NCBI GenBank assembly: GCA_017544725.1
Contig: JAFYDR010000158.1
Span: forward strand, 615-64,614
Direction: 5' to 3'
Length of the DNA stretch: 64,000 nt
DNA from: Kiritimatiellia bacterium
Lineage (GTDB): Bacteria > Verrucomicrobiota > Kiritimatiellia > RFP12 > UBA1067
Shown here piece by piece: positions 23,879 through 54,553 of the stretch (position 1 is its first letter; each line of letters opens with the position of its first letter). A program made the translations under genes and the position numbers. A model generated the notes under the pieces. That model was not told the DNA's origin. It saw nothing but the letters and a program-made list of their open reading frames with translations, and made no database searches.

Positions 23879-25849
23879 CTATTCGTGCGGTCCTGCGGAG
23901 CAAAGGAGGCGGAGCCCGATGGAGTTGAAGCGGCCGTCAGGGTCGTACCCGTAGCGGTACGCGGAGCGACAACCCCACGCGACGCTGCGCCAGCTGCCGC
24001 CGCGCAACACAAGGTACGACCCCGAGGACGGTCCGGTAGGATCGGTCACGCTTCCGGACGGATAGTCCCCGAACCAGTCCGAACACCACTCCCACACGTT
24101 CCCGTGCATGTCGCACAGACCCCAGGCGTTCGGCTTCTTCTGTCCCACGGGATGCGTCTTGTCCCCGCTATTCCCGTCGTACCATCCCATCTCGTCGAGA
24201 TTCCCCGAACCTCCGTAGGCTCCGGTCGTCCCCGCGCGGCAGGCGTACTCCCACTCCGCCTCCGTCGGCAGCCGTGCCCCGCAGTCCAGCGCCGAGTTCA
24301 CCTTCTTGATGAACTCCTGACAGTCATTCCACGAGACTTGCTCCACAGGAAGGTTCGCGCCTTTAAAGTTGGAAGGATTGTTCCCCATCACGCTCTCCCA
24401 CTGTTCCTGGGTCACGGGCGCCTCGCCCATCCAGAATCCGCGCGTCAGCGTCACCCGGTGCTGCGTCTCGTTGTCGTATCGTCCATCCTCTGATGTGGGG
24501 CTTCCCATCGTGAACGTCCCCGCAGGACACCAGCGGAAGCGCATCTCCGCGCCGCCGGGCAGGGTGAGCGTCTTTCCCTCCGCCATGTACCGCGCTTCAC
24601 GCGCCTTGCGCTCGGCGGCCTCGCGCACCCGGCGCACTTCCGCCAGCTTCTTCTCCAGCTCCGCTGCCTGACGCGCCTCCTCCGCGTCCCGGCGTTTCTT
24701 CTCCTCCGCCAGCTCGCGGGCTTTCCGTTCCGCCTCCGCCTTCTCTTTCGCCCTGCGTATTGCTTCCTGGACCTCGCGTTCCGCTTCACGCGCCGCCGCG
24801 AGTTCCGCCTCGATGGCCGCCTTCAGCTCCGCCTCCCGCCGGGACCACTCGTCCGTGTCCTCGCGCCCGTCAGTCCGTGCCTCCGTGCCGGACGACACCG
24901 ACACCGTGACCTTGGGAGGCTTTGCCGCAGAAGCGGTTTCTGGTTTCGCGCAGGACTTGCAGACGCCGGGTGTCCCGGAGGAGTGCGACAGGCAGAGGTT
25001 GTCCGCGCCGCACACCCGGCACCGAAACGTTTCCGTCACCAGGTTCTTCCTGCCGCACAGCGGGCACGCCACAACCTCCAGCGTCGGGCGAGGCGTCGGC
25101 TCCGCTCGTCCCGCCACCAGCACCACCCGCCCCCAGTTGGCGGAAAGCCGGATTTCCGGCGTCTGATTCAGCTGGAGGTCGTTCTCCACGGCGATCTCCC
25201 CCATCCGGTCATAGACAGACTTCAGGAACGACTGGTCGAACACCAGTTCTATTCCTGACCTCTTGCTGCCCCCGATCACCTCGTCCATCGCCAGCGAGAA
25301 GACCCCGCGACGCTTCGAGGGCAGCTCCAGCGCGCACTGCCCCTGCCCGCACGAGCGCATCACAGCCAGCCCACCGGTCCGCACGTTCTTCACGTAGCTG
25401 TCCGCCGACGGGAGGAGGTCGCGGGGTTGCCCCGCCCCGCGCGTCGTGAACGGGTTCGACCGGCACGCATCGACAATGAAGATGCGGCTCAGCCCCGCGC
25501 GTTCCGTCTCGGACTGGAGCAACCCGAACGGGATCCCCGCGAAGTTGTACTGGATATTCGCATACCGGTCGTCGCGGCAGAACAGCAGGTGGTCGTTCCC
25601 GCCTGGCGACGCGAACCCGTGCCCCGCGAAGTAGAAAAGAAACTCGTCGCCCTCACCCAGCCCGGCCGTGATCCGCCTGAACTCCCTCATCACCTGGTCG
25701 CGCGTCGGGTTCGGCAGCAGTACCGGGTCAAACCCGATCGCCCGGAACTGCGCGAGCATGAGCGCCGCGTCATTCGCCGCGCACTGCAAATCGTGGATAC
25801 CCTCGTCGTCATACTGGTCAACGCCTACAAACACCGCCTTCCGCTTCAT
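23879..25849 (-). CDS. Caspase (C14)-zinc ribbon-charged coiled coil-FGE-sulfatase (FGS) domain protein, paralog 1
   Basis: Caspase dyad contexts FYFAGHGF and FIVDACRS. CPLCGRKN...CRVCG...CKSC zinc ribbon. About 90 aa of E/R/K/A helix. FGS motifs RVTLTRGFWMGEAPVTQEQW, RLPTEAEWEYACRAGT, GLCDMHGNVWEWCSDW, LRGGSW. Confidence 0.85.
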   Translation of the reverse strand: MKRKAVFVGVDQYDDEGIHDLQCAANDAALMLAQFRAIGFDPVLLPNPTRDQVMREFRRITAGLGEGDEFLFYFAGHGFASPGGNDHLLFCRDDRYANIQYNFAGIPFGLLQSETERAGLSRIFIVDACRSNPFTTRGAGQPRDLLPSADSYVKNVRTGGLAVMRSCGQGQCALELPSKRRGVFSLAMDEVIGGSKRSGIELVFDQSFLKSVYDRMGEIAVENDLQLNQTPEIRLSANWGRVVLVAGRAEPTPRPTLEVVACPLCGRKNLVTETFRCRVCGADNLCLSHSSGTPGVCKSCAKPETASAAKPPKVTVSVSSGTEARTDGREDTDEWSRREAELKAAIEAELAAAREAEREVQEAIRRAKEKAEAERKARELAEEKKRRDAEEARQAAELEKKLAEVRRVREAAERKAREARYMAEGKTLTLPGGAEMRFRWCPAGTFTMGSPTSEDGRYDNETQHRVTLTRGFWMGEAPVTQEQWESVMGNNPSNFKGANLPVEQVSWNDCQEFIKKVNSALDCGARLPTEAEWEYACRAGTTGAYGGSGNLDEMGWYDGNSGDKTHPVGQKKPNAWGLCDMHGNVWEWCSDWFGDYPSGSVTDPTGPSSGSYLVLRGGSWRSVAWGCRSAYRYGYDPDGRFNSIGLRLLCSAGPHE

Positions 25850-25878
25850 ACCGATCTCCTCATTTTCTTTGACGGAAA

Positions 25879-25907
25879 AGCATACTAAACTTTTGCGTTT
25901 TCAGCAA
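25879..25907 (-). promoter_or_regulatory. Putative promoter TTGCTG-17-TATGCT in the conserved leader of paralog 1
   Basis: Minus-strand -35 at 25902-25907 and -10 at 25879-25884. It lies within a ~70-nt block conserved upstream of three caspase-FGS genes. Confidence 0.35.
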
Positions 25908-26010: not shown

Positions 26011-27216
26011 TCACTCTGGAATCCAACCTTTGCCTTTACAAGAGCGGCAAGTTACATCCCCTAATAAACAACGGGGACAGGTTTCGGAAACGCGACCTGT
26101 GCCATCACATACCTGACACTTGGTTTTCCGCTGAACCATTCGAAATCCATTGCCGCTGCACGTATCACACTTGACAGGAATACACCCGTTCACATCATGA
26201 TACATACTGCTTTGACATAACACATAACCGCTGCCGCCACACTGATTGCACGGCACGAACATCAAGAACCCATTCTGTTTCCCGTGCGTACCGTTGAACA
26301 TCCAGACGCATTCCGTGCAAGGGCATCTGACATACCAGTTTCCATCCAATGCCCCACGCATACACTGATTGGGACACCGGATTAGCCGGTTCCCCAAGGT
26401 GCAATCCGAACATGTCTCCGTCTCCGTTGTCTGGATGTATCCATGATCACACGCATCACACCGTACCGACTTCTTCCCGGATCCATGACATTCAGGACAG
26501 GTTACACGCCCCTCCCCCTTACAATCGCCGCATTTGCGAAGCCAATGTCCTTCCTCCTTGGCTGCTTTGCGGTCGCCATCCAACATGCCAGGTGTCCATA
26601 CGAGTTCCGAAAGGCCATCCGCGTCTTTGTCTTTTCGAGAATATCCGGGCATCGGCTGCCAATAATCAGTCGGATGCTTGGCGGTGCTGATGGAAACCCA
26701 GTGCGGATATTTCACGCTTTCTATTCCCGCACGCCACTCCGTGTTCGAGCCACCCGTCCAGACATATCCTTCTTCTTTCGGTTTCCACTGGCCTTCTTTC
26801 TTCGTTGAAACCAATCTCCTGTTCTGTGGATGCGTCATACCCGCTTTCCACTTGACACGTTCCGTCCCGCGTATCCACTCATACCCGACAGATGTACTGC
26901 GCCATGTGCCCTCCTCCGTAGCCGAGACCAATTTCCCGTTCCGGGGATGCGTCACGCCGACCTTCCATTCGGTGCGCTCCGTTCCGCGCACCCATTCATA
27001 CCCGGCAAGCGTACTGCGCCATGCGCCCTCCTCCGTATCCGCGACCAGATACTTGTTCTGTGGATGCGTCATACCAACCTTCCATTCGACCAGATCGGTA
27101 CCATCCCCCGCCCACACATATCCGGGCGGAAGTTGCGGACGTGTTTCCTGTCCGGCAAGCGCAGTCAAACACCACAACAATAAACAGATTCGCACAACCC
27201 CCAGTCTTCTCTTCAT
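26011..27216 (-). CDS. Secreted protein: 39-aa tandem repeats + array of DnaJ-type CxxCxGxG zinc fingers
   Basis: Signal MKRRLGVVRICLLLWCLTALAG (ATG 27216 after GGGAGGG; the track start is TTG 27222). Repeats have the form GY.W..G....EWK.G.THP.N..LV....EG.W. The C-terminal half has CGDCKGEGRVTCPECHGSGK, CNQCGGSGYVLC, CDTCSGNG, CQVCDGTGR, CRSCKGKG. Confidence 0.7.
   Translation of the reverse strand: MKRRLGVVRICLLLWCLTALAGQETRPQLPPGYVWAGDGTDLVEWKVGMTHPQNKYLVADTEEGAWRSTLAGYEWVRGTERTEWKVGVTHPRNGKLVSATEEGTWRSTSVGYEWIRGTERVKWKAGMTHPQNRRLVSTKKEGQWKPKEEGYVWTGGSNTEWRAGIESVKYPHWVSISTAKHPTDYWQPMPGYSRKDKDADGLSELVWTPGMLDGDRKAAKEEGHWLRKCGDCKGEGRVTCPECHGSGKKSVRCDACDHGYIQTTETETCSDCTLGNRLIRCPNQCMRGALDGNWYVRCPCTECVWMFNGTHGKQNGFLMFVPCNQCGGSGYVLCQSSMYHDVNGCIPVKCDTCSGNGFRMVQRKTKCQVCDGTGRVSETCPRCLLGDVTCRSCKGKGWIPE
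26770..27123. repeat. 117-bp (39-codon) tandem repeat x3 (plus degenerate 4th) inside the CDS
   Basis: Protein residues 34-72, 73-112 and 113-151 align column by column. Confidence 0.8.
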
Positions 27217-27370
27217 CACCAACCCTCCCTGTCTATCAACTTCTCCGCATTCCCGCTTCTAACTTTTCGCCCGACGGTGCCTACCACCGCCTTCATATCC
27301 ATTCTCGTGTACAACGCGGACCACAGATCAACTGGTTATCACCGTTACAACACATCCACGGTTGTCCCGC

Positions 27371-27982
27371 TCACCATCCGACGCGGAAAACCGGGATGAA
27401 TTCGACCTTGGCATCCGACTCGATGTTGATCAGTCCCAGCTGGACTCCACACAAGGATTTCGCACGGTTCATCACACCAATCTGAAGCCCTGTCATCTTC
27501 GTTGCCATGTTCACCAGTCCGATTTGCGCCCCGTTGTATTCACCCATCGATACGTTCGTGAGACCGGCAATCTGAAGGCCGTTGAAGTACTCCCCGTCCG
27601 ACGCATTTGCAAAACCGGAAATCTGAATCCCGTTTCCTCTTTTGGAAATCTCATTCCCACCTCCCGCGATTTGCCACACGCCCGCAGTCGCATCTTCCGC
27701 GATATTCACAAGCCCTCCAATCTGGAATCCGCCCACGCTCGCATCGGAATTACAGAGCGCGGACGTGGCGATTCCGTAAAGCTCTTGGTGTCCACCTGCA
27801 AAACATCCCAATCGGTATCCGTAAATCGAGAAGGTACGCCCCGGCAACTGAAGATCTATATCCTTGGCCGCATCTTTCGCGGGTTTCGCACTTCCCGACC
27901 AGGAAAAGGCGAAAACCGATGTCCGCGCATGGACGGAACCAACCAATAAGAAAAACAGCAGCAAACAACCTATCCTTCGCAT
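27371..27982 (-). CDS. Secreted protein made of G-[LVI]-Q-[IL]-[AG]-G-x-x-N short repeats
   Basis: Signal MRRIGCLLLFFLLVGSVHA. Recurrent GFQIGGLVNIA, VWQIAGGGNE, GIQISGFANA, GLQIAGLTNV, GAQIGLVNMA, GLQIGVMNRA, GVQLGLINI. Confidence 0.6.
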   Translation of the reverse strand: MRRIGCLLLFFLLVGSVHARTSVFAFSWSGSAKPAKDAAKDIDLQLPGRTFSIYGYRLGCFAGGHQELYGIATSALCNSDASVGGFQIGGLVNIAEDATAGVWQIAGGGNEISKRGNGIQISGFANASDGEYFNGLQIAGLTNVSMGEYNGAQIGLVNMATKMTGLQIGVMNRAKSLCGVQLGLINIESDAKVEFIPVFRVGW

Positions 27983-27988: not shown

Positions 27989-28777
27989 TTACTCCTTTCC
28001 CTTCAGCAGTGTGCACCGATATGCTTCATTTTCAGCAAATCCCCATTCCTGCTTGAACGGATGATCCTCCGGCAGGGAAAAGACAACCGAGACGAACGGC
28101 ATCCCCTCGATCTGCCTTCGCGTGAGCCGGATGGGTTCTCCCCGTCTGGACTTCACCTCAAGCTCCGGGCACGAGAGAACCGCATCTTCCAAAAACACAC
28201 TGGTCTCATTCAGTCGTCTGCTGTCTGTTTCCTCCCGACTCTCCCATTTCTTGTATTTGCAGAACCCCAAGATCGGAGAAAGGGCAAACGCGGATTTCCC
28301 GAACACCGAGTCCTTCTGATCCCGTGTGACATACGTGAACGGCTCCACCAACAATCCGTACACCGTCGGAAGGCCAGCATACACCACATTGTACCAGCAC
28401 GCGCCCAACGCATTTCCCACCGCCCTGGATTGTTCCCCCTGACACCCCATGACGCCGGGGAAAAAACCGATTGCCCACCAGTGACCATCCCGGCTCGTGA
28501 TGTCGGTTGAGGTATGGACCTCCTTCTCGAATGCGCCGGACAACCGAATCCGAATCTCCACGTCCCCGTTTTCCAGGCGCGTTGCAACGGGTACGATCTC
28601 GCCGTCACGCGCCGACACCCGAAGCCACTTCACCGAGGTTTCGCGTGGCGTCCCGTTGACACTTCTGCCCGAGTCCGTCTGCACGGCAACGCAACCCGCC
28701 CCCAGCAGGGCACACCCTGCAAGCCCCAGCAAAAAGCCCGCACCGGCTCTACCCCAGTTTCTCCGTTTCATTGACAT
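27989..28777 (-). CDS. Lipoprotein, unknown function
   Basis: MSMKRRNWGRAGAGFLLGLAGC carries the lipobox L-A-G-C. 262 aa with no recognisable domain. Confidence 0.55.
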   Translation of the reverse strand: MSMKRRNWGRAGAGFLLGLAGCALLGAGCVAVQTDSGRSVNGTPRETSVKWLRVSARDGEIVPVATRLENGDVEIRIRLSGAFEKEVHTSTDITSRDGHWWAIGFFPGVMGCQGEQSRAVGNALGACWYNVVYAGLPTVYGLLVEPFTYVTRDQKDSVFGKSAFALSPILGFCKYKKWESREETDSRRLNETSVFLEDAVLSCPELEVKSRRGEPIRLTRRQIEGMPFVSVVFSLPEDHPFKQEWGFAENEAYRCTLLKGKE

Positions 28778-28785: not shown

Positions 28786-31473
28786 TTACTCCCTCTCGAT
28801 GATCCGTTCCTGCTTATTGATTCCCCGAACCAAGCCATGCAGACTGTAGTAAGACCGCACGGTTTTTCCGTTCTCCCTGCGAATGGCAAGGATTTTGTTC
28901 TTGTCACTACCCACATCCTTCTCTGGTATCACCAGATAAACGGAAGCGCATTTCGTCTCCGGGTCAATCTCCACGCATCTGTCGTTCCCCGTCGAGGATA
29001 ACGGCAGTCCGATATTCTCGTACATCTTCGCCCCGGACCGGATTCCATAGGCGACGATCTCGACAATGTAGGGAAGCTGACTCCGCACACTTTCCATGCC
29101 GGATTGGATCTCGCGAATCCGTTGGGCGTTCGCCGACGATGCGCCTTTTGCGGACGGCAGCGTTTTCGCCGTCTGCGAAAGGTTTTGCAGACATTCCTGC
29201 ACCGCGCGGACTTTCCTGTCCGCCCGCAATGTCTGTCCGGTTGCCTCGGCCTTTTTCTGCGCCTGCTTGAGCAGATTCTCGCAGACGTCCAGCCGCTCCT
29301 TCCACTCCTGCTCGATGCGTTTTCTCTCCTGCTCGGCACGGGCCTCTTCTTCCCTGCGCTTCGCGTCGAGCCGATCCTTGAGATTTTTCCGGAGCGAGGC
29401 AAGCACACGCGACTCCTCAGGCGTCGCAACCAGTTTCTCGGCTTGATTCGCCGCCCCGTCAAAGGCCGCCGCGTCCAGCGATTCGAGCGCCGTCTCCGCC
29501 ACCTCCATCAACTGCCGCAACCGAGCCTTCCTGGCAACCTCCGCGATCGCCTGTTTCAAGCGTTTGTCGGCCTCTCCGATCCGATGTTCACCGGAGGCGA
29601 TTTCCGCCTCCTGCATGGGAAACCGGTAATCAGGGGCGTTCAGCTGCCTGAAGTCCGGGTATTTCGCGTACTGGGAAAAATTCGTGTACACGGCAAACAC
29701 CGCGCGATAGTCCGCCAGCAGCTCTGACTGGATCGTTTTGATCGCGTTCGTAAACGCTACGCAATACCCATCCGCCTCTTTCATCGCCCGGCGCATCCTG
29801 TCCACCTGCAATCCGGAATCGCATAACCTCGCCCAAAGATCGTTTCGTATCGAGTTCTCTGGCGTGATGTGCAACATCGGGAAATTCCACAGTCCCTTAA
29901 CCCGCTTCCGCACTTCCTCCCAATCATTGGCGCGTTGCGTTTCCGGATACTGCAACAGCTGTTCGATCTCGCCGGCAAGACGCTGATTCTCCCGTTCACA
30001 GTACCGCGCCGCACCGCAATACGCGCCATACACCATGCCGGCTAGTAACAGAATCGCCGCTGCGCGTTTGAGAAAGGTGAAGAAACGTTGCCTCCGGTGT
30101 ACCTTTTCAGCCGCCAACTCGTCGCAAGCCGCCGAAACGCTCTGGCGCACCCACTCCATATAATCGATGCCCTCTCCGGTGTCCACGTTGAATCCGTAAA
30201 GCACCGGGGCGAATGTGGTTTCCGCCTCTTGAGCGACATTGTCGGCAAGCTGTATAAGCGTATTGTCATCGCGGATCCGGGATGTTGTCCCGGTTTTGAT
30301 GACTTTCAGTATCTGCCGCATCCAGACCTCATCCACCTTCAGCCGCCCCCTCCACTTATCATGGGCAGCCTTCACATCATCGTCCGCTATCGTCGCGTTA
30401 CGATAGAGGATCTGCGTACGAGACTGGTTCAAGTTCCCGGGGTTGCCGACATACGCGAGACACCCAACCCTGAACGAATCTGCCGCCGCAATAAATTCTC
30501 TCAGAACCTGAAGCCGTTCCGTTAACACCGAACGGATAGCGAGCTGACGCGCGAACTCGTTACGCAACCGGAGATACTCCAGATATCGATTTTTCAATTC
30601 GTATAGAGCATCTCCCTTCCCCGCCACGATCCCACCGACCGTGAGCAAGAAACCGAAAAGCCCGTCCGACTCGATTGACGGCGGCACCGCGTTCTCGGAA
30701 TTCAGCTCGTTTACCGCAGAGACGCAAATAATCGGGACCTTATGATTCTGAACCTGTTGCATGAGGCTTTGCGCACCGCGTTCGCAGAGATACAAGGTCG
30801 GGCCACCAGTATTCTCAATCGTTTCCCGGACCAGATGCGTCTGGGTGAGGACCAGCAGCGATTTTCGGGCAAGCTCCGCGTCTTTTCTCAACAGCCGCCA
30901 GAAGGTATCCACCGAGTCCTCGAAGTTCTTCCGGAGAGCCTTTCCGGTACTGCCATCCGGATATGCTGCGGCGTTGATAAACAGGCAGACGAGCGTCGCC
31001 TCCTTCACGGCTTGGCGGATTTCCTCGACGCGGAACTCCCCGGAACTGGACACCGATCCACTCGCTGAGAGCAACGCATCATCCGCCGCAGCACCCGCCC
31101 CTGAATAGGAAGCACTCTCGCCGCCAAAGTCCACCGCGAACGCCTTGCGAATCTGTTCGCCCGAACAGTCCATCGTCGCCAAGTCAAAGATCGGCCGCGC
31201 ACCCGTATAAACCGTCCAGTGGAGCTGGGTCATCTCGTCCTCTCGGGTGTTGGCGAGCCACTCCCTGTTGTTACAAAGCTCGCTGTACTTCCTGTTCACC
31301 AGCTTCCTGGTTTCGTCGCTCTGCGGTTCGAGACGGAAACCGAGCGGCGCAGCAGTACCGCCCTCCTCCAGCAGCATATACTTCATGCCCAAGACGGAAA
31401 GGAATACGGTCTTCCCGCTTCGCTGCACCCCCAGAATAAACACCTTCGGAACTTTCTGGTTTTCTGTCGTCAT
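28786..31473 (-). CDS. Membrane-anchored TRAFAC-like P-loop GTPase, paralog A (long coiled-coil C-terminal region)
   Basis: G1 GVQRSGKTVFLS, G3-like MDCSGEQ, G4-position LVLTQTHL, G5-like ICVSAVN, conserved ESDGLFGFLLTVGGIVAG. One mid-protein TM (AAAILLLAGMVYGAYCGAA), then a helical/coiled-coil tail. Confidence 0.7.
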   Translation of the reverse strand: MTTENQKVPKVFILGVQRSGKTVFLSVLGMKYMLLEEGGTAAPLGFRLEPQSDETRKLVNRKYSELCNNREWLANTREDEMTQLHWTVYTGARPIFDLATMDCSGEQIRKAFAVDFGGESASYSGAGAAADDALLSASGSVSSSGEFRVEEIRQAVKEATLVCLFINAAAYPDGSTGKALRKNFEDSVDTFWRLLRKDAELARKSLLVLTQTHLVRETIENTGGPTLYLCERGAQSLMQQVQNHKVPIICVSAVNELNSENAVPPSIESDGLFGFLLTVGGIVAGKGDALYELKNRYLEYLRLRNEFARQLAIRSVLTERLQVLREFIAAADSFRVGCLAYVGNPGNLNQSRTQILYRNATIADDDVKAAHDKWRGRLKVDEVWMRQILKVIKTGTTSRIRDDNTLIQLADNVAQEAETTFAPVLYGFNVDTGEGIDYMEWVRQSVSAACDELAAEKVHRRQRFFTFLKRAAAILLLAGMVYGAYCGAARYCERENQRLAGEIEQLLQYPETQRANDWEEVRKRVKGLWNFPMLHITPENSIRNDLWARLCDSGLQVDRMRRAMKEADGYCVAFTNAIKTIQSELLADYRAVFAVYTNFSQYAKYPDFRQLNAPDYRFPMQEAEIASGEHRIGEADKRLKQAIAEVARKARLRQLMEVAETALESLDAAAFDGAANQAEKLVATPEESRVLASLRKNLKDRLDAKRREEEARAEQERKRIEQEWKERLDVCENLLKQAQKKAEATGQTLRADRKVRAVQECLQNLSQTAKTLPSAKGASSANAQRIREIQSGMESVRSQLPYIVEIVAYGIRSGAKMYENIGLPLSSTGNDRCVEIDPETKCASVYLVIPEKDVGSDKNKILAIRRENGKTVRSYYSLHGLVRGINKQERIIERE

Positions 31474-33667: not shown

Positions 33668-33700
33668 CGTCCCCTGACTCCTCAATTCCTTTGACGGAAA

Positions 33701-38869: not shown

Positions 38870-38926
38870 ACTTTTCTCATGCCCCACGCTGCCACACCAG
38901 ACACACCATGCAAATCCCGCACCGCT

Positions 38927-47187: not shown

Positions 47188-48423
47188 TTATTCGTCAAAA
47201 TCTTCATCGCGTCCGCCCGACGCCGCTTTCCCATCCAGCGAGAACTCCAGATTCCGCTTGACGATCTCCGGATCCTTGATGGATACCGGTATGATTTTCC
47301 TCAACGCCTCCAGAAAATCGACACGGGTCACCGGCTCCACGCGCTTCCATTCCGGATCGTCTGGAGAACGCCCCTCGCGCCGCTGAATCCACCGGCGGGA
47401 GGCGTTGGCGCGCGCTTCGTGGCAGATGCCGCCGCCATCCCCGTGGTTCAGCTCGGCCCCGCTGAATCCCGCTGTCTTTTCGACCAGTTCGTCGATGTTG
47501 ACATCGTCAGCCAGCGGTACGTCCTGCAACGCGGACTCGATGATGCAACGCCGCGTTTCCGCATCGGGCAACCCGACATGCGCCGCCGCGCCGATACGCC
47601 CGCTACGCAGTACCGCACTGTCGATCAGCCACGGCCGGTTCGTCGCCAGCAACAGAAAGATCTGCGAATTGCGATTGGTATCAAACCCGTCCAGCTCCGC
47701 CAGAAACGCCTCCACGATGTTGACCTTCTGGTTCCCGCGTTTCCGCAGGAGGGACTCGCATTCGTCCAGGAAGACGACGCATTGCTTGTGTTGGTACGCC
47801 TCCTCGAAGAGGCGCGACACGTTTTTCTCGCTCTCCCCGACGTACTTGTCCTTCAGATCGCTCATCTTTTTGTAGATGAAGGGCAACCCTAATTCACCCG
47901 CGATCGCCCGCGCAAACATCGTCTTCCCGGTACCTGGAGGACCATACAATAGCAGACCTTTCCCGCCCTTGATCTTCAAAGTCCGATAGATATCAGGGTG
48001 TTTCACTGGATTGACCAGAGATTCCATCACTACCTGCTTGGCATCCTCCAGCCCCTTCACGTCCGCAAGCCGTAACGTCTGCTGCGTCTTTCCGGCGGCA
48101 GCATCCCCCGAATCTGCCGGAGTGGACGGGCCATCGTCGGCATGAATCGCCTGTTTCGAGTCATCCCCGGAGGACTTCTTGTCCCAGACGGGCGCATGCT
48201 TGACCCGCCCAGCTGCCGTACGCTCAATCTCCTGCCATTTGGCACGCAACGACTCCCAGCGCGGAAACGAGCTCGTCTCTACCAGTCCGGACACTAAAAT
48301 CGCCCCGTAGATTTTGACCAGACTCTCCGCCTCACGCTGGAGAGTCTTCCAGTCCCCCGAAAGCGCAGCTTTCTCGGCGATGGCCTTATGTTCGGCCTCC
48401 TGCCTCAAAAACACGTCAATCAT
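47188..48423 (-). CDS. Vps4-like AAA+ ATPase with MIT-like N-terminal helical domain (canonical pore loop)
   Basis: N-terminus EHKAIAEKAALSGDWKTLQREAESLVKIYGAIL. GLLLYGPPGTGKT, DKYVGESEKNVSRLFEEA, VVFLDECESL, ATNRPWLIDSAVLRSGRI, TAGFSGAEL. Confidence 0.8.
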   Translation of the reverse strand: MIDVFLRQEAEHKAIAEKAALSGDWKTLQREAESLVKIYGAILVSGLVETSSFPRWESLRAKWQEIERTAAGRVKHAPVWDKKSSGDDSKQAIHADDGPSTPADSGDAAAGKTQQTLRLADVKGLEDAKQVVMESLVNPVKHPDIYRTLKIKGGKGLLLYGPPGTGKTMFARAIAGELGLPFIYKKMSDLKDKYVGESEKNVSRLFEEAYQHKQCVVFLDECESLLRKRGNQKVNIVEAFLAELDGFDTNRNSQIFLLLATNRPWLIDSAVLRSGRIGAAAHVGLPDAETRRCIIESALQDVPLADDVNIDELVEKTAGFSGAELNHGDGGGICHEARANASRRWIQRREGRSPDDPEWKRVEPVTRVDFLEALRKIIPVSIKDPEIVKRNLEFSLDGKAASGGRDEDFDE

Positions 48424-49034
48424 AGTACCTTCTTCACTCCGTTCAAGACCTGCGTGATGACCTCTTCCGTCAGCGAATCTTTCGAATCCGCCATCTGATC
48501 AATCATTTTGTCGAGGGAATCACCCTGCAAACCGGCACTTTCGAGGTCGGAAGAGGCTATGTCATTCCAAGACGACTCAAAGTTGTCCAGCATGTGATCC
48601 ATCATTTCCTCGGCATTTTTCGCATTCATCATGCCCTTCTCGAACTCTGCCTGGGCCATTGTTGCGTCATCAAAGGAGAACGTGGTACTCATCATCTTCC
48701 CGATGTCCTGCATGGCACCGCAGAAATCGCGGTAGGCTTCCATTTGGTCAGACATCGTAGAGGCCAGCCGCAGAAAGTTCAGGGCACGCTGCGCCCGCTT
48801 GCGGAAAACAAACGTTCGCGCCAACGCCTTTTTCACCTGATTGTAGTTCGCCCCATCACCCGTCCGCTTGGCGTTCGTCGCCTGCTGCAGGTACTGCTTG
48901 ATGAAATTGTCTTGTTTCTTGACCTCCTGATCGAAACGACGCAGTGCACCGTTGATGCGGATCTTCCGCTCCATCGCCACCTTCGCCGGATCCGGAAACA
49001 GGAACGGGAAACATTTGGAGAAAAAACCAGCCAT
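48420..49034 (-). CDS. ESCRT-III (CHMP/Vps2-like layout) protein, 204 aa
   Basis: MAGFFSKCFPFLF N-terminal hydrophobic stub. Basic helical hairpin (RRFDQEVKKQDNFIKQYLQQATNAKRTGD...KKALARTFVFRKRAQRALNFLR). ...MQDIGKMMSTT...AQAEFEKGMMNAKNAEEMMDHMLDNF..., then an acidic tail DSLDKMIDQMADSKDSLTEEVITQVL. ATGA overlap with the AAA gene. Confidence 0.6.
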   Translation of the reverse strand: MAGFFSKCFPFLFPDPAKVAMERKIRINGALRRFDQEVKKQDNFIKQYLQQATNAKRTGDGANYNQVKKALARTFVFRKRAQRALNFLRLASTMSDQMEAYRDFCGAMQDIGKMMSTTFSFDDATMAQAEFEKGMMNAKNAEEMMDHMLDNFESSWNDIASSDLESAGLQGDSLDKMIDQMADSKDSLTEEVITQVLNGVKKVL

Positions 49035-49085: not shown

Positions 49086-49982
49086 TCAACCTCGCGACGA
49101 ACAATACGAAGCGAGATAGTTGCTTACCGCCAACAAGTACCAAATGATGAGTACACCCCAGAGGCACAGCATCATCGCCTCAATGACATTCGTCGGAGTA
49201 CCCCAGATCGCCCACTCGAACGCGAACAGAATGAGGATGTAAATCAAGACCATCCACGCATTCAGGCGGGAAGACTGCTTGCGAATCACCGTAATCGTGA
49301 TGGGCAACATCAAAAACGGGAACAGTAAAACGCCCAGAATCGCACACAGCAAGCGCATCGCGAACGGATACGACTTGGTGACATACCCTACCTGATTCAA
49401 CAGCTGAGATGTTTTCTCATGCGTGTAGTTCGCGATGACCGTCTTGGGAGGGAGATTTTGCCGACTATAGAACGTACAGGTCAAACGTCCCTGCGCCGTT
49501 GTCTCGTTCTCCGTGTAATCCGTCCCGTCAAAATGAACCACCAGCAAGGTATCCGCATCCATCTTCTGGCGAATCGAGTCGATTTTGTCAATCGTCAATG
49601 GAGACATCGTCTGTCCCACGCCAATCGTTTTGCCGATACGCTTCAACACGTGATCCGGGAGAATATCGAACCGCCGACTCCTGTCCGGACCGAACTCCGC
49701 CACCTTCCGTCGGATCGCATCCTGAAAATAGTCCCAACTGTCACTATCCGAAACCATAAGTACACGCCCGACCCCGTCCCGACTCCACGGAAACTGCTCC
49801 ACCGCCTGCTGCACCAAGTTCTCCGCAACATTCCTTTGAATCGGGGAAAGCTGGTATTTCGCAGGTTCCAGCCGATGCAGGAAATAAAAGCATGTGCAGC
49901 TCAGAAAAACGATCGAAAGCAGTTTCCTGCCGCCACGAGAACAAAACACATAAATTGGAATCGCCCAAAGGAACTTCGTCAT
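49086..49982 (-). CDS. Polytopic membrane protein, unknown (first gene of the ESCRT-like block)
   Basis: 298 aa. An N-terminal TM, a ~170-aa soluble domain, then 3-4 C-terminal TM helices (LLCAILGVLLFPFLMLPITITVI; WMVLIYILILFAFEWAIW; MMLCLWGVLIIWYLLAV). Confidence 0.55.
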   Translation of the reverse strand: MTKFLWAIPIYVFCSRGGRKLLSIVFLSCTCFYFLHRLEPAKYQLSPIQRNVAENLVQQAVEQFPWSRDGVGRVLMVSDSDSWDYFQDAIRRKVAEFGPDRSRRFDILPDHVLKRIGKTIGVGQTMSPLTIDKIDSIRQKMDADTLLVVHFDGTDYTENETTAQGRLTCTFYSRQNLPPKTVIANYTHEKTSQLLNQVGYVTKSYPFAMRLLCAILGVLLFPFLMLPITITVIRKQSSRLNAWMVLIYILILFAFEWAIWGTPTNVIEAMMLCLWGVLIIWYLLAVSNYLASYCSSRG

Positions 49983-50153: not shown

Positions 50154-51866
50154 TCAACTACCACACGGTTCCGCAGAACAGCAGAGACGGAAACCGATAC
50201 CGCAACTCCTGTGCAACGGTCCATCTTTGCTTCGGCTCGCGGAACGACAAGACGGAAAAGGGCTACGCCAGCACCCACCACGTTGCACACGATAAGAGCC
50301 TGTGGCTGGGCCAATCGGATCGGTCGCATCCCCCGACAGATACTTGCCGTACCAATCTGCGCACCACTCCCACACATTTCCGTGCATATCGCATAGTCCC
50401 CAGGCATTCGGCTTCTTTTGCCCAACAAGGTACGTCTTTCTAAAAAGGCTTCCAATAGGTCCCATACTTCCCCACCAGCCCATCTGACCCAATTTTCCCG
50501 TTCCACCGTATGGACCAGTCGTTCCCGCCCGGCAGGCGTACTCCCACTCAGCCTCCGTCGGCAGACGCACAGCGCAATGTAACTCCGTGTTCACCTTTTT
50601 GAGAAACTCCTGGCAATCCTTCCACGAAATCTGCTCGACGGGTAATGCGTCATTACCGGTAAACTTCGACGGATTGTTCCCCATCACACTCTTCCACTGC
50701 CCCTGCGTGACAGGATACTTACCCAACCAGAACCCCTTCGTCAATATCACACGGTGATAGGTCTCGTCACCGCTACGTCCCACCTCTCCGTTCTCACTGC
50801 CCATCCAGAACGTTCCGGGGGGACAGTAAACCAGCTCCAACTTGGCACCACCGGGAAGCATAAGCGTCTTTACAGTGCCAGCTGTCGGATAGGATGCGGG
50901 AGACGAGGACGTTGCCCCTCCCGACAACGGTATATCTGACTGCGATACGCGCATTTTCTCGGCGCAGTCAGAACAACAATTGGCGGATTGATCGTAGTGG
51001 TTCTTGCAGAGGTAGTCTCGACCACAGATGCGGCAACGGAAGGTTGCGTCTTCTTCGTTACGCGAACCGCACAACGGACAAGTCACGGTCGCGAGAGACA
51101 CGTCGTTGGAGACCATCTGATCATCCCCTTCGATCAGAACGATACGTGGCCAATCAACCGTTTTTTCGCTTTCGGGCTTTTGTCCTGTGTAACAACTATT
51201 CGCCCGCGCCGCCTCCCCCATCCGCTCGTAAACTTGTTTGAGGAACGAGTTTCCAAAGACAAGTTCCTGTTTCTTGTCTCGGCAGTGCGTCATCACGCGG
51301 TCAATCGCGTAGGTAAAGATTCCGTGCCCCAGTGACTCCAGTTCCAGGGCACTCTGTCCCGAACCGCAGGAACGCCAAACCGCATACGTGCCACCTCCGC
51401 GATTCCCCATCATCGCGGACATCGGAACAAGGTCGCGAGGTTTCGCCTTTCCGCGCTGTCCGGAAAAGAAATTCGAGCGACAAGCGTCCAGAATGAAGAT
51501 GCTGTTCTGTCCATTCCGCAACGTTATATCGCGCAACATAGAGAAGGGAATCCCTGCCCGATTGTACTGGAGATTCGCATACTTGTCATCCTTGCAAAAC
51601 AACAATTCGTCGCCCCCGCCCGGACTCATGAACCCATGTCCTGCGAAATAAAAGACAAAGAGATCCCCTGTTCCCAGTCCGGCGGTCATCGCCTCAACCC
51701 ACTTTTCCACATCCCCTCGCGCTGGGTCCGGCAACAGTTTTGTCTCAAAGCCGCAAAACTTGAACTGCGCCTGTATCTCTGACGCATCGCCTACCGCATA
51801 ACGCAGATTCTCGATCTGTGCGTCCTGATACTCATTTACCCCCACAAATAATGCCTTACGCTTCAT
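50154..51866 (-). CDS. Caspase-zinc ribbon-FGS protein, paralog 4 (shortest linker)
   Basis: MKRKALFVGVNEYQD, FYFAGHGF, FILDACRS, CPLCG...CRICG...CSDC. FGS motifs RVILTKGFWLGKYPVTQGQW, RLPTEAEWEYACRAGT, GLCDMHGNVWEWCADWY, QRGGCW. Confidence 0.85.
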   Translation of the reverse strand: MKRKALFVGVNEYQDAQIENLRYAVGDASEIQAQFKFCGFETKLLPDPARGDVEKWVEAMTAGLGTGDLFVFYFAGHGFMSPGGGDELLFCKDDKYANLQYNRAGIPFSMLRDITLRNGQNSIFILDACRSNFFSGQRGKAKPRDLVPMSAMMGNRGGGTYAVWRSCGSGQSALELESLGHGIFTYAIDRVMTHCRDKKQELVFGNSFLKQVYERMGEAARANSCYTGQKPESEKTVDWPRIVLIEGDDQMVSNDVSLATVTCPLCGSRNEEDATFRCRICGRDYLCKNHYDQSANCCSDCAEKMRVSQSDIPLSGGATSSSPASYPTAGTVKTLMLPGGAKLELVYCPPGTFWMGSENGEVGRSGDETYHRVILTKGFWLGKYPVTQGQWKSVMGNNPSKFTGNDALPVEQISWKDCQEFLKKVNTELHCAVRLPTEAEWEYACRAGTTGPYGGTGKLGQMGWWGSMGPIGSLFRKTYLVGQKKPNAWGLCDMHGNVWEWCADWYGKYLSGDATDPIGPATGSYRVQRGGCWRSPFPSCRSASRSKDGPLHRSCGIGFRLCCSAEPCGS

Positions 51867-51916: not shown

Positions 51917-54553
51917 TCACCTTGAACTCTCAGCCCCATCCATACGCACGTCTGCTGAACAGCAGAGGCGGAAACCGCAACCGTCGCGACGAGTGTCGGA
52001 TTCCATGTCGTTACGGAACACGATCCTACATGCATAAGCCTGAATATACCAGGTGCCACCACGTTGCACGCGGTTCGAACCAGAATTCGTATCTTCGTTA
52101 CACGGATCACTTTTCGGCGAATGCGAATAGTAGTTCTTGTCATATATATCACGACACCACTCAAACACATTCCCGCTCATCCCGACAATGCCTAGCTCGT
52201 TGCCGACATCCTTTTCGCGCACCGAATGAGGACGGCATTTGTTCGAGTCCAGTTTTTTGTTGTCCCAAGACTGTTCAAGAAGCCGTTGAACGCCAGAATT
52301 TTCATAATACCAGCCCACCTTATCCATCTCATTACCCCCACTGTATATGTATCCTTTCGATTTGTTTCCGCCTCTCGCCGCAAACTCCCACTGCGCCTCG
52401 GTAGGCATCACCCACGTTCGTCCACTCCGTTCATTCCGATTTAGGACTTTCACAAGCATGTCGCAATCGTTCCAGCTGATACTTTCCATCGGAAAGTCAG
52501 ATGTGTCCATATCGTTTACGACATCACGTTGATAACCTTGCTTGGAAAAAGCGGCTACAAGATTCTCGTTGCTAAACGCGACATTGTTTGCGACGACAAG
52601 CTCTGACCATTGACGTTGCGTGACAGGATATTTTCCAATCCAATACCCCTTTGTAATGCATACCGAATGTATCGGCTCTGCATCTAGTGAATACTTTCCC
52701 CCCATCTGAAATATTCCCGGCGTAACATAAACCATCTCCATCTTCACCCCGCCAGGCAGGATAAAGTTTTTCATGGTACCTGCCGCTATTTTTTCATCCT
52801 GCATTTTGTTCTCGGTTTTCTTGTCACGAATCCGAACAACCTGTCCAACTCTGATCTTCTCAAAATTCACGCCTGGATTCCACGTACGCAAGTCCTTTAT
52901 CCTTATCCTATGACGATAAGCTATAGAAGCCCATGTATCCCCATTTTGGACAATATACGTATCGTTTGTACCAAGAGACTGGTTGCCGCTTGATTGGGAA
53001 TCGCCTTTCTTGGAGTCATCCTTTTGTTTCGATGTGGTTTCACTTGTTCCAGACTCTTGTTTTGTAACAACAGCTTCTTCTTTTTGTTTCAACGTCGCCT
53101 CATCCGCAAGCCGCTGTTGTTCCTTTCGAGTTTCTGTTAGACACGTTTCGAAGAGTTTGGCAGCCGCTATGTACGCGGTTGACGCCTCCCTGAATAGCAG
53201 ATTCGTCATACAAGTATCGCCATTTGCAAGCAACTTTACCGCCTTGTTCCAAGAAACCTGCGCATATTGTTCCCCCTGTACCGCCTTCGCTCGTTCCCGA
53301 GCCTCGATTACGGCGTTGCGATTCGTTACCGCATTCTTCTGGTCGGATTCGGATACAAATAGCTTTTTCACGGGCAATGGTTTTGTCGTAGATTTTTGAT
53401 CCTCGCCTGCATAGACTGGCACAACCGAACCGATCTTTTCCGCTTTTTTGTCCACGTGTTGACTGGCAGGGACAATGACTTTCCGCTGATTCCGATACCA
53501 TGTAACACCTCCGATGACAACAGCCGCAATCAGCGAAATGGCGAGGAGCAAGAACGCTCCTTTCCGAAGAGCGTTCCGTTTCGTTTCTGTTTTCTTAAGC
53601 TGATCCTTATTCGAGCCGTTTTCTTCAGGGTCGTCCTGATCGGCTTTCTCGCAAGACTTGCAAACGCCCGGATTCCCGGACGAGTGCGCCAGGCAAAGGT
53701 TATCCTTGCTGCACACCTTGCACCGGAACGTCTCCGTCACCCGATTCTTCCTGCCGCACAACGGGCACTCCACGATCGTCTCCTGTTGAGAATGAGGCGG
53801 TTCCGGCACTCGCCCTTCGACCAAGACCACGCGTCCCCAGTTCGCCGACATTTTGATTTCCGGCGTTTGGTTGAGCTGAAGATTGTTCTTCTCGGCGATC
53901 GTCATCATCCTGCCATAGACCGATTGCGCGAATGACTGGTCAAAAACCAGCTCCTCCCCCGATTCCCTGCTGTTGTCAATCACCTCATCCATCGCCAGCG
54001 AGAAGACGCCTCGCCGTACCGACGGCAGCTCCAATGCGCACTGCCCCTGTCCGCACGAGCGCATCACCGCCAGCCCGCCGGACCGGACGTTTTTCACGTA
54101 ACTGTCCACCGAAGGAAGCAGGTCCCGCAGTTCTCCCACGCCCCTTGTCGCGAACGGATTCGAACGGCAGGCATCGACGATAAACATACGGCTCAGTCCC
54201 GCCCGTTCCGTCTTGGACTGAAGCAACCCGAACGGAATCCCCGCATAATTGAACTGGATGTTCACGTACTGGTCATCCCGACAGAACAACAGATGGTCGT
54301 TCCCGCCGGGCGCGGAGAACCCATGCCCCGCGAAGTAGAAAAGAAACTCGTCGCCCGCCCCAAGCCCCTCCGTCATCCTCGTGAACTCTTGGATCACCTG
54401 ATCGCGGCGCGGATTTGCCAGTAGAACTGTCTCGTAGCCGATCGTACGAAACTGCGCGAGCATCAGCGCCGCGTCATTCGCCGCGCACTGCAAATCATGA
54501 ATACTCTCGTCATCGTACTGATCGACACCTACGAATAGTGCTTTCCGCTTCAT
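51917..54553 (-). CDS. Caspase-zinc ribbon-TM-helical-LysM-divergent FGS protein, paralog 5
   Basis: Start MKRKALFVGVDQYDD at 54553 (the track start is 54595). FYFAGHGF, FIVDACRS, CPLCG...CKVC...CKSC. TM GAFLLLAISLIAAVVIGGV. LysM YIVQNGDTWASIAYRHRIRIKDLRTWNPGV...VGQVVRI. FGS ITKGYWIGKYPVTQRQW, MPTEAQWEFAARGG, GMSGNVFEWCRDIY, QRGGTW. Confidence 0.85.
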   Translation of the reverse strand: MKRKALFVGVDQYDDESIHDLQCAANDAALMLAQFRTIGYETVLLANPRRDQVIQEFTRMTEGLGAGDEFLFYFAGHGFSAPGGNDHLLFCRDDQYVNIQFNYAGIPFGLLQSKTERAGLSRMFIVDACRSNPFATRGVGELRDLLPSVDSYVKNVRSGGLAVMRSCGQGQCALELPSVRRGVFSLAMDEVIDNSRESGEELVFDQSFAQSVYGRMMTIAEKNNLQLNQTPEIKMSANWGRVVLVEGRVPEPPHSQQETIVECPLCGRKNRVTETFRCKVCSKDNLCLAHSSGNPGVCKSCEKADQDDPEENGSNKDQLKKTETKRNALRKGAFLLLAISLIAAVVIGGVTWYRNQRKVIVPASQHVDKKAEKIGSVVPVYAGEDQKSTTKPLPVKKLFVSESDQKNAVTNRNAVIEARERAKAVQGEQYAQVSWNKAVKLLANGDTCMTNLLFREASTAYIAAAKLFETCLTETRKEQQRLADEATLKQKEEAVVTKQESGTSETTSKQKDDSKKGDSQSSGNQSLGTNDTYIVQNGDTWASIAYRHRIRIKDLRTWNPGVNFEKIRVGQVVRIRDKKTENKMQDEKIAAGTMKNFILPGGVKMEMVYVTPGIFQMGGKYSLDAEPIHSVCITKGYWIGKYPVTQRQWSELVVANNVAFSNENLVAAFSKQGYQRDVVNDMDTSDFPMESISWNDCDMLVKVLNRNERSGRTWVMPTEAQWEFAARGGNKSKGYIYSGGNEMDKVGWYYENSGVQRLLEQSWDNKKLDSNKCRPHSVREKDVGNELGIVGMSGNVFEWCRDIYDKNYYSHSPKSDPCNEDTNSGSNRVQRGGTWYIQAYACRIVFRNDMESDTRRDGCGFRLCCSADVRMDGAESSR

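Follow-up and report, generated by a model that had tools for sequence, protein, structure and literature searches.

A caspase- and GTPase-linked gene cluster around an ESCRT-III/AAA+-like core in a Kiritimatiellia contig: a candidate membrane-directed conflict system

Gene Array and Its ESCRT-like Core

[quoted passage not shown] All sequences compared in this study come from metagenomes, and functions are read from gene context. The listing of open reading frames (ORFs) gave 19 uninterrupted minus-strand ORFs at 23879-54595, which were numbered g1-g19 by coordinate, with transcription running from g19 to g1. The plus-strand genes at 17077-23159 are denoted f1-f5, and related loci elsewhere are given L numbers. 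The GC skew (−0.12 to −0.27) was strongly negative only across 24-54 kb, which is ascribed to minus-strand coding because such coding is expected to give it. A preliminary description, made from the window sequence alone, had reported 19 consecutive minus-strand genes, the ATG of g19 at 54553 and four start/stop overlaps, all of which were borne out by the ORF listing. The overlaps at 36314/36324, 40662/40675, 42809/42812 and 48420/48423 are exact and belong to the pairs g8/g7, g10/g9, g11/g10 and g16/g15, respectively. Its inventory totaled 18 genes, with g10, a membrane-anchored protein of 716 residues without a Pfam family, omitted. The counts of four caspase-Zn-ribbon-FGS proteins (g1, g6, g18, g19), one GTPase-FGS fusion (g7) and one stand-alone caspase without FGS (g11) were reproduced with Pfam, that of three further GTPase paralogues (g5, g8, g9) with Pfam and alignment, and that of four membrane or exported proteins (g2, g3, g4, g17) with scans for transmembrane (TM) segments and signals. 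The core of the array consists of the following genes, given in the order of transcription.

g17: 49086..49982, minus strand; membrane protein with a hydrophobic N-terminus and, at its C-terminus, three TM helices; first core gene
g16: 48420..49034, minus strand; divergent Snf7/ESCRT-III-superfamily subunit, assigned by profile chaining and fold
g15: 47188..48423, minus strand; classical-clade AAA+ protein (Cdc48-D2/FtsH-like) with a helical N-domain of about 75 residues
g14: 46415..47074, minus strand; helical protein of 219 residues with an N-terminal FGW motif; likely start at 47074 from homologue alignments
g13: 45792..46397, minus strand; helical protein of 201 residues, conserved in all core loci
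g12: 44491..45768, minus strand; single-domain AAA+ protein with a C-terminal Vps4_C helix and a helical N-domain of about 70 residues

Direct Pfam, NCBIfam and PDB sequence searches returned nothing usable for g13, g14, g16, g10, g17 and g4, and the g16 family profile found nothing relevant when compared with PDB by sequence. We place g16 in the Snf7/ESCRT-III superfamily, as one of the divergent members, on the strength of the relatives and the modeled fold of the protein. An exhaustive hidden Markov model (HMM) search of 1.84 billion representatives gave 180 relatives at E ≤ 1e-3, and among the 123 relatives scanned there were 26 whose match to Pfam Snf7 (best 1.1e-7) was collinear and spanned most of the model; no rival family was found for the Snf7-matching region among these 123. 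The chain is illustrated by P0034, which matched the g16 profile at E 2e-36 and Snf7 at 1.9e-3, and by P0040, for which the values were 6e-18 and 4.8e-4. The AlphaFold2 (AF2) model of g16 (16 sequences, pLDDT 73) placed a short hydrophobic N-terminal helix before helices 16-58, 61-115, 121-156, 172-183 and 190-197, a layout that agrees with ESCRT-III. The top PDB matches of this model in Foldseek were CdvB, CdvB2, CHMP2A/CHMP3 and CHMP3, with probabilities of 0.97-1.0.

Several observations were made on the g16 relatives in passing. Eleven of the 123 scanned relatives, including P0057, P0060-P0062, P0065 and P0070, matched FtsK/SpoIIIE; these are probably proteins of 430-510 residues with an N-terminal g16-like region, and if so they would represent a Snf7-like domain fused to an FtsK/SpoIIIE ATPase, a fusion that we have not seen described. 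A cluster look-up gave no informative names for the distant relatives, and no relative of g16 was found on viral contigs. The sole plasmid match was a weak one to a hypothetical protein at 18055-18444 of NZ_CP014751.1 (Thermococcus peptonophilus), with 26% identity over 64% of the query at E 9e-4, which hints at Snf7-like genes related to g16 on archaeal plasmids.

The two ATPases of the core are of different types. The start of g15 overlaps the stop of g16 by 4 nucleotides (nt), and g15 is translationally coupled to g16; it is 60-94% identical across core loci. The protein g12, which is 69-99% identical across core loci, matched Vps4_C at 26.9 bits (cut-off 21.3) in Pfam and CdvC at 126.5 bits in NCBIfam, the latter through the C-terminus of the model. 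Its C-terminal 142 residues were best matched by spastin (1.6e-11), katanin, MEI-1, fidgetin-like 1 and the Vps4 of Metallosphaera (M. sedula), so that on sequence grounds g12 is assigned to the AAA+ proteins of the spastin/katanin/Vps4 ("meiotic") clade. Of the two proteins described earlier as Vps4-like, g12 therefore keeps the name by its Vps4_C helix and C-terminal 142 residues, whereas g15 is a classical Cdc48-D2/FtsH-like AAA protein. Weak similarity (E 1e-3) was seen between the N-domains of g12 and g15, and the profile of the g12 N-domain compared with PDB gave only weak TPR-like and other weak matches.

The remaining helical proteins were compared by hhalign. The alignment between g13 and g14 (86%, E 4.7e-6) indicates that they are paralogues of each other, and g14 aligned weakly with g16 (54%, E 1.3e-4). 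Compared with the Snf7-related set, g14 scored 42% and g13 scored 16%, and HMM searches with g13 and g14 gave no matches among the g16 relatives. The AF2 model of g14 (pLDDT 83.6) is all helical, with a long hairpin and an N-terminal FGW helix, and conserved C-terminal motifs are present in g16, g14 and g13. A divergent ESCRT-III identity is possible for g14. The earlier count of three Snf7-like proteins thus stands for g16, by profile and fold; g14 gave no ESCRT-III fold match, and g13 is linked by hhalign through g14 only. The homologues of g17 are 33-94% identical and always lie directly upstream of a g16 homologue, and g17 is the candidate membrane anchor of the core.

Conservation of the Core and Its Neighbors

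Related genes were collected from 13 independent loci, namely the window and L001, L003, L005, L006, L007, L008, L013, L014, L015, L017, L018 and L019. The order membrane protein (g17), g16-like, AAA (g15-like), g14-like, g13-like and AAA (g12-like) is kept in most of the 12 further loci, including the more distant L017, at 33-99% identity; L018 has a rearranged variant, and L015 has genes inserted in its core. The family is rare: only 28 clusters of g16 proteins (90% identity) were obtained from 5.8 billion proteins. Two of these clusters carry source names, from Kiritimatiellae and Victivallales metagenome-assembled genomes (MAGs), and the window copy lies in a Kiritimatiellae MAG. Ruminant-gut metagenomes supplied most of the context contigs, and when 185,579 species genomes were scanned by pattern, one locus was found, in a goat-rumen Victivallales MAG. 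The preliminary description had regarded the ESCRT-like block as an additional arm of a caspase-GTPase locus; these ordered genes, recurring across 13 loci, are instead the conserved core.

The linkage of this core to caspases and GTPases, which had been proposed from the window, proved genuine in the comparative genomics. In 11 of the 13 loci a caspase lies 1-3 genes away from the core, and DO-type or dynamin-like GTPases lie beside it in at least six (window, L003, L006, L007, L017 and L019). The core-adjacent caspase of L001, L005, L008 and L014 is approximately 40% identical to the caspase-Zn-ribbon part of g1, g6, g18 and g19, and the complete caspase genes there carry other C-terminal domains, such as Sel1, or vWA-LysM on the second caspase of L001. 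The GTPases comprise DO-GTPase2-like proteins in L006 (28.2 bits, cut-off 27) and L007 and a DO-GTPase1-like Sel1/TPR protein in L017, and in L003 the core is accompanied by dynamin-like proteins without a caspase. A protein matching Nuc_deoxyrib_tr directly follows the second AAA gene in L006, L007 and L014, and its L014 copy is also above the cut-off for the CAP12/Pycsar TIR family. Further neighbors are FtsH-like proteases in L005 and L006, a subtilisin in L018 and, in L014, two kinase-FGS proteins. At 19369-20028 of L001 lies a gene for a eukaryote-like ubiquitin sequence (MQIFVRVLSGKTVTLDVES...LHLVLRLRGEG, including MQIFV; PF00240, 88.8 bits); the encoded protein also carries a hydrophobic leader, which is short, and a 130-residue tail, and the gene directly follows two caspases beside the core.

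A second set of neighbors lies outside the coordinates 23879-54553 that had been taken as the boundaries of the system. These plus-strand genes are convergent with the array in the window.

f1: 17077..17820, plus strand; small protein with a sigma-70 region-4-like helix-turn-helix (weak Pfam Sigma70_r4 match, E 6e-4)
f2 and f3: 17831..18978, plus strand; two small conserved proteins without a Pfam family
f4: 18854..21526, plus strand; papain-like Peptidase_C1 protein (Pfam E 2.7e-10) with two C-terminal membrane helices (TM residues 830-877); true start probably near 18950
f5: 21444..23159, plus strand; Pfam DUF4384 protein with a coiled coil; true start probably near 21531

L001, L005 and L014 carry a five-gene set of this type upstream of their cores, and L008, L015, L017 and L018 have parts of it. 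For f1, a putative dedicated regulator, L001 and L005 have homologues (28-30% identity) upstream of the core, and sigma-r4-like genes were also found in L007, L017 and L018. Those of f2 and f3 keep the same order in L001 and L005 and are partly present in L014 and L015. In L001, L005 and L014, a gene that stands upstream of the core is 38-42% identical to the protease f4 over more than 800 residues. Homologues of f5 (33-38%) lie directly upstream of the core membrane protein in L001, L005, L008, L014 and L015, with weak DUF4384 matches in L017 and L018. The system hence reaches further than had been described, and f1-f5 belong to it.

Caspase and FGS Proteins

Five caspases are encoded in the array, four of which carry FGS; a fifth FGS domain is fused to a GTPase.

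g19: 51917..54553, minus strand; caspase, Zn-ribbon, TM helix, LysM and FGS (Pfam Peptidase_C14, LysM and FGE-sulfatase); likely start at 54553 (ATG) from the shared MKRKALF start and homologue alignment
g18: 50154..51866, minus strand; caspase, Zn-ribbon and FGS (Pfam); cytoplasmic variable accessory
g11: 42809..44416, minus strand; caspase (Peptidase_C14, E 1.4e-19) with a helical C-terminal extension of about 240 residues, without FGS, in a conserved position following the second AAA gene; likely start at about 44416, as the L019 homologue aligns from residue 43, favoring the shorter start
g7: 33850..36324, minus strand; GTPase paralogue with a probable two-helix membrane hairpin and FGS (FGE-sulfatase, E 1.8e-46)
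g6: 31541..33667, minus strand; caspase, Zn-ribbon, RodZ-type HTH_25 and FGS with an inserted PP-binding domain (Pfam); likely start at 33667 from the shared MKRKALF methionine
g1: 23879..25849, minus strand; caspase, Zn-ribbon, charged coiled coil and FGS (Pfam Peptidase_C14 and FGE-sulfatase); cytoplasmic variable accessory sensor-protease

The catalytic His/Cys dyad is intact in all five caspases, with the His in FYFAGHG and the Cys in DACRS or DCCHA. FGE-sulfatase was matched at E 1e-40 to 1e-46 in g1, g6, g7, g18 and g19, C-terminal to the caspase or GTPase. The TM scan gave a single segment in g19 at residues 346-364, from which a cytoplasmic protease and a periplasmic sensor part are predicted, and gave none in g1. 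The hairpin topology of g7 is probable from its sequence and the TM scan.

An N-terminal motif that had been described for three of the paralogues, MKRKA[VL]FVGVDQYDD.[GS]IHDLQCAANDAAL, was confirmed exactly in g1, g6 and g19. The caspase domains of these three are 76-82% identical to each other, and that of g18 is 50-53% identical to them. The FGS domains are 59-72% identical among g1, g6, g7 and g18, while g19 is an outlier at 38-43% against the others. The suggested pattern of a conserved protease with diversified sensors therefore exists, but the statement that the FGS domains diverge strongly was overstated and fits only g19. The nearest FGS relative of the caspase g1 is that of the GTPase g7 (72%), a closeness that points to domain shuffling.

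The FGS loop of g6 holds, at residues ~480-550, a complete acyl-carrier (PP-binding) domain with the serine motif GADSLD, and shorter insertions were observed at the same position in g7 and g19. Diversification of FGS by a diversity-generating retroelement was considered and rejected, as the end of an FGS gene is nowhere repeated within the 64 kb as a non-coding, template-like copy; the repeats of the window are paralogous coding copies, except the elements D17 and D20. No reverse transcriptase was seen among the ORFs scanned, which were part of those in the window.

GTPases and Their Partners

The GTPases are encoded together with a large membrane protein, g10, and with exported proteins toward the end of the array.

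g10: 40662..42812, minus strand; 716 residues with a conserved N-domain of about 260 residues, a coiled coil, a TM helix and a Ser/Asn/Pro-rich tail; without a Pfam family
g9: 38927..40675, minus strand; DO-GTPase1-like NTPase (34.9 bits, cut-off 27), tail-anchored by a C-terminal TM helix at residues 561-579
g8: 36314..38887, minus strand; DO-GTPase1-like NTPase (26.8 bits, cut-off 27) with a TM helix and a post-TM domain in common with g5
g5: 28786..31473, minus strand; DO-GTPase1-like NTPase (weak, 20.2 bits) with a TM helix at residues 464-482 and a long C-terminal region after it
g4: 27989..28777, minus strand; probable lipoprotein with a lipobox-like LAGC within its hydrophobic N-terminus
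g3: 27371..27982, minus strand; exported LA_2272-type surface-repeat protein (NCBIfam LA_2272_repeat, 58.3 bits, cut-off 25)
g2: 26011..27222, minus strand; exported protein with three tandem 39-residue repeats and a Cys-rich CxxCxGxG zinc-finger array; signal-like N-terminus and a weak DnaJ_CXXCXGXG match

Alignment of g5, g7, g8 and g9 gave approximately 450 common N-terminal residues at 39-59% identity, with g5 and g8 59% identical, and the motifs GxxxSGKT, DxSGE, TQTH and SAV are invariant across the four. Only g9 is above the Pfam cut-off for DO-GTPase1 among the window GTPases. The TM scan indicated that every GTPase, g10, g17, g19 and the flanking papain-like protease f4 are membrane-anchored, and export signals were found on g2, g3 and g4. 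The protein g10 sits in the position that the partner GAP1 takes beside such a GTPase. No family match was found for g4 in Pfam, the PADLOC models or NCBIfam. The tandem repeats of g2 are encoded by 117-nt units (D18/D19) at 26791-27102, and its C-terminal half is dense in zinc-finger-like motifs (CxxC/CxxCxGxG), an uncommon trait for a protein of the periplasm; no homologue of g2 was found in the related loci.

The coupling of these proteins to the core was followed in other loci. In the closest relatives, L013 and L019, the order g17-g12, g11, g10 is kept, and in L019 the start of a g9-like gene follows the g10 homologue. The homologues of g11 are 100% identical over 306 residues in L013 and 59% identical in L019. 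For g10, identity to its homologues is 87% (L013), 53% (L019) and, over the N-domain, 38% (L016); all three homologues adjoin a caspase and/or a GTPase, and g10 is regarded as a conserved partner of the GTPase. The locus L016 was found in a metagenome scan via the GTPase alignment alone and is distant (32-36% identity). Its genes encode, in order, a LpoB-like protein, a 297-residue coiled-coil protein, a 212-residue Snf7-like protein, a caspase, an AAA protein and a kinase, followed by the g10 homologue (38%), a GTPase, two g3 homologues directly after the GTPase, a second kinase, a DO-GTPase2-like protein and, beside the latter, a borderline GAP1-N2 protein (23.7 bits, cut-off 24). The 212-residue protein matched Pfam Snf7 at 6.5e-4 and the g16 relatives at 95.8% in hhalign, and the AAA protein is 31% identical to g15. 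Since the combination of Snf7-like protein, AAA, caspase, g10, GTPase and g3 recurs in this independently reached locus, we regard it as the strongest evidence that the blocks work together; g3 is likewise a conserved partner of the GTPase module.

Variability and Transcription of the Array

The rest of the array is more variable. Homologues of g10 and g3 were not found in most core loci, and no counterparts of g2, g4 or the caspase-FGS genes were found in the other loci. Upstream of g17, L013 carries an ATPase_2/HTH gene and L019 a Peptidase_M48 gene with small proteins; g18 and g19 were not found upstream of the core in either. Identity to L013 falls from 99-100% for g11-g14 to 93% for g15, 80% for g16 and 57% for g17, a gradient that reads as a recombination mosaic. 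Identity to L019 is 94% for g15 and g17, 63% for g13, 59% for g11 and 53% for g10, so that g10, g11 and g13 are fast-evolving there. Taken together, these sequence comparisons suggest recombination and uneven selection inside the cluster.

The spacing of the genes is uneven as well. From g12 to g7, genes are spaced by at most 75 nt or overlap when the corrected starts are used, and gaps of 148-182 nt occur at g18|g17, g7|g6, g3|g2 and g2|g1. A 67-nt element, D17, containing ...TTTTCTTTGCGGAAAATGCAAAAGTTTAGTATGCTTTTCCGTCAAAGGA..GAGGAG, occurs in three copies (25856-25922, 33678-33744 and 54563-54629; 73-93% identical) that stand immediately 5' of g1, g6 and g19, respectively, and was not found upstream of g18 or g17. 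As each of g1, g6 and g19 has its own copy, these paralogues were duplicated together with their 5' regions. The element could be a shared promoter, a leader or a regulatory RNA, and g1, g6 and g19 each probably have their own promoters. Scans for promoter and terminator consensus sequences gave matches at chance level only and were uninformative. The description of the array as one large locus is hence not retained: with g18 and g19 missing upstream of the core in L013 and L019 and separate D17 copies in the window, it is not a fixed unit.

Surroundings of the Array

A few features of the remaining window were recorded. A 42-nt direct repeat (88% identical; 56554-56595 and 63958-63999) brackets plus-strand HlyD/ABC/MacB genes and an ORF of 1289 residues. 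GC content is 0.61-0.67 in the sugar-utilization genes (1-10000) versus 0.50-0.58 in 10000-64000, with g1 (~0.65) as an exception. A protein combining Schlafen AlbA_2, HATPase_c_4 and Fic-like_C regions is encoded at 11271-12872, approximately 4 kb from f1-f5, and no link between it and the cluster was seen. The tRNA scan found no tRNA genes in the window, so there is no clue to an integration site, and no clear island border was found in it. A phage origin was rejected, as there were no viral matches.

Proposed Function and Rival Explanations

The core is genetically coupled to caspases with intact dyads and to membrane-bound DO-type NTPases. Our best explanation, to which we assign a probability of roughly 45%, is that the cluster encodes a new conflict system that is directed at the membrane, controlled by caspases and GTPases and built around an ESCRT-III/AAA+ core. 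A rare and patchy distribution, varied immune-type neighbors, mosaic identity, intact dyads and mostly membrane-anchored parts together make up the signature of a conflict system, and from this gene context we infer an immune or cell-death function. Within this explanation, the array is several transcription units and not a single operon, and the caspase-FGS genes are variable add-ons that serve as interchangeable input modules.

A working scheme may be outlined on this basis. FGS, LysM, Sel1 or vWA sensors on the caspases, the FGS or post-membrane domain on the GTPases, and FGS on kinases in a relative would recognize, in the cytoplasm or at the envelope, a ligand that stems from an invader or from damage. 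In the window, g1, g6, g7 and g18 would sense in the cytoplasm, and g19, along with the regions of g5 and g8 beyond the membrane helix, in the periplasm, with the GTPases acting as membrane-bound switches. Activated caspases might then cleave a core component, most plausibly an autoinhibitory tail of a filament subunit or g10. The ESCRT-III-like subunits would polymerize on the inner membrane, where g16 may be paired with the classical AAA+ protein g15, and g14 and g13 with g12, on the anchor g17, and the two AAA+ ATPases would remodel or recycle the filaments. The outcome could be membrane scission or collapse, leading to abortive infection or cell death, or else the sealing and shedding of damaged envelope.

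Several points weigh against this explanation. The assignment of g16 has its weak sides: no direct Pfam match was found for it, its Foldseek E-values are weak (0.05-0.7), and the Snf7 matches of its relatives are mostly under the Pfam cut-off. The model of g14 gave no ESCRT-III match in Foldseek but generic coiled coils, BAR domains and pore-forming toxins (probability ≤ 0.5), so that g13 and g14 are unproven, and not demonstrably, ESCRT-III subunits. Pfam gave no MIT match on the AAA+ proteins g12 and g15, and no GAP1 match in the 19 array proteins at E ≤ 0.01. Homologues of the window-type GTPases were not found in most core loci, and all homologues come from uncultured metagenome bacteria. 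A PADLOC run (PADLOC-DB 2.0) on the 19 proteins, a check that the preliminary description had proposed for a known defense system, matched no system and gave only generic caspase and AAA (IetA/TRIP13) matches. In the scheme itself, caspase cleavage is pure inference, and killing and repair are not distinguished by the data.

Some of the same observations would suit a non-immune machine for membrane homeostasis, acting in vesicle formation, repair or a division step of Planctomycetes-Verrucomicrobia-Chlamydiae (PVC) bacteria, for which the caspases, GTPases and sigma-like protein would be ordinary regulators. Conservation of the core is good (60-94% identity for its AAA+ proteins), and a dedicated sigma-like regulator accompanies it; the bacterial ESCRT-III relatives PspA and Vipp1 act in membrane repair, and L003 has its core with dynamin-like proteins and no caspase. 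Such a role is, however, at odds with the extremely patchy occurrence (one match in 185,579 species genomes, 28 protein clusters), the conflict-type neighbors (TIR-like, ubiquitin, many proteases and sensors), and the mosaic recombination and fast-evolving components, and we consider it unlikely while taking it seriously. A different account leaves the immune character but dissolves the unit: independent caspase-FGS sensors, a DO-GTPase-like module and an ESCRT-like module would merely be juxtaposed in a defense island. The separate D17 elements at g1, g6 and g19, the 148-182 nt gaps that split the array, the lack of g18 and g19 upstream in L013 and L019, the scarcity of window-type GTPases at core loci and the existence of stand-alone caspase-FGS and DO-GTPase systems elsewhere all fit this account. 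It is nevertheless rather improbable, as caspase and GTPase genes recur by the core in the distant L006, L007, L016 and L017; g12, g11 and g10 are syntenic in L013 and L019, with the g9-like start in L019; g11/g10, g10/g9 and g8/g7 overlap; and the caspase-Zn-ribbon part of g1, g6, g18 and g19 is ~40% identical to the core-adjacent caspase of L001, L005, L008 and L014.

The eukaryotic resemblances raise a further explanation, in which ubiquitin, spastin/katanin-like AAA and Snf7 genes were acquired from rumen eukaryotes and encode effectors acting on host or prey cells instead of the membrane of the bacterium itself. It draws on the eukaryote-like ubiquitin beside caspases in L001 and on the C-terminal region of g12, which is closer to eukaryotic spastin and katanin than to archaeal Vps4. 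The core proteins, however, have no export signals, an inner-membrane protein opens the core, a linked secretion system is lacking, the genes are ordered as in an operon and have bacterial regulators, and both g15 and the DO-type GTPases are of prokaryotic type; we regard this origin as highly improbable.

A membrane-directed conflict system around the ESCRT-III/AAA+ core remains our preferred explanation. Going beyond it, the cluster might encode a genuine bacterial ESCRT-III/Vps4-type machine in which caspase cleavage, controlled by GTPases, triggers polymerization, providing defense by abortive infection or envelope shedding, with parts maybe exchanged with archaea or rumen eukaryotes; in this full form we regard the proposal as doubtful. 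If true, it would be a prokaryotic counterpart of the contest between caspases and ESCRT-III at the membrane in animal cell death. A bacterial Snf7-family subunit with two AAA+ proteins, one of them of the spastin/katanin/Vps4 clade, would revise the picture of bacterial absence, and the link to caspases and GTPases would offer a testable setting for how proteolytic death signaling joined ESCRT-III remodeling. A second question that it raises is whether membrane remodeling itself serves as a bacterial immune effector.

Comparison with Known Systems

Reviews of 2024-2025 deny Vps4-type ESCRT systems to bacteria, one of 2025 stating that a Vps4-like ATPase "appears absent in bacteria". A phage shock protein (PSP) survey recorded scattered Snf7 homologues in bacteria, as well as bacteria, among them a verrucomicrobium, that had received Vps4-like ATPases; in these transfers a TPR-6TM protein had taken the place of snf7. 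Conflict systems with caspases, FGS and DO-GTPases were described by Kaur et al. (2020; PMC7159879), where GAP1 is also part of them, and by Kaur et al. (2021); neither paper mentions Snf7, Vps4 or ESCRT. The preliminary description had attributed such combinations to the 2020 study, which is correct for the FGS, caspase and DO-GTPase systems and does not extend to the ESCRT part, and GAP1 is lacking in the window. In the literature searched, we found no paper tying such ESCRT-like genes to caspases or GTPases.

The array resembles the archaeal Cdv (CdvB/CdvC) and the Asgard/eukaryotic ESCRT-III-Vps4 systems in having a Snf7-superfamily subunit beside a single-domain Vps4_C AAA+ protein (g16 and g12), several small helical proteins in tandem, and a short hydrophobic N-terminal helix on its subunits that suggests action at the membrane. 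It differs in its bacterial host and in its second AAA+ protein, which is of the classical Cdc48-D2 type. Instead of CdvA, ESCRT-I/II and a winged-helix partner it has a dedicated membrane protein, two of its three "subunits" are not recognizably ESCRT-III, MIT/MIM is not demonstrated, and it has caspases, GTPases, a papain-like protease and DUF4384 in tight linkage. PspA and Vipp1 are likewise ESCRT-III-fold proteins of the bacterial inner membrane, but the array has no PspB/C/F or Toastrack partner and the g16 relatives match Snf7, not PspA. A Psp system was accordingly rejected, with no PspA_IM30 match in the array or among the top families of the g16 relatives.

With the DO-GTPase/GAP1 systems, the window shares membrane-anchored P-loop NTPases with a DxxGE Walker B motif in multiple paralogues, which are adjoined by caspases and variable sensor or effector domains. 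In contrast to them, it lacks GAP1, has TQTH in place of an NKxD-type motif, and shows a helical domain of ~160 residues and the g10 partner that are specific to its family. As in known FGS conflict proteins, FGS stands C-terminal behind a variable enzyme, which is a caspase or GTPase here and a kinase in L014; the window proteins are not in a vWA-MoxR or STAND ternary system, however, and the FGS of g19 is predicted to be periplasmic, behind LysM. A bacterial gasdermin system was rejected, as PADLOC gave no gasdermin-like match. In animals, caspase-gasdermin death pathways are countered by ESCRT-III repair at the same membrane. The resemblance to this pairing is a functional analogy only; here both sides are encoded together. 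The cluster is read here as a novel form of both ESCRT systems and NTPase/caspase conflict systems.

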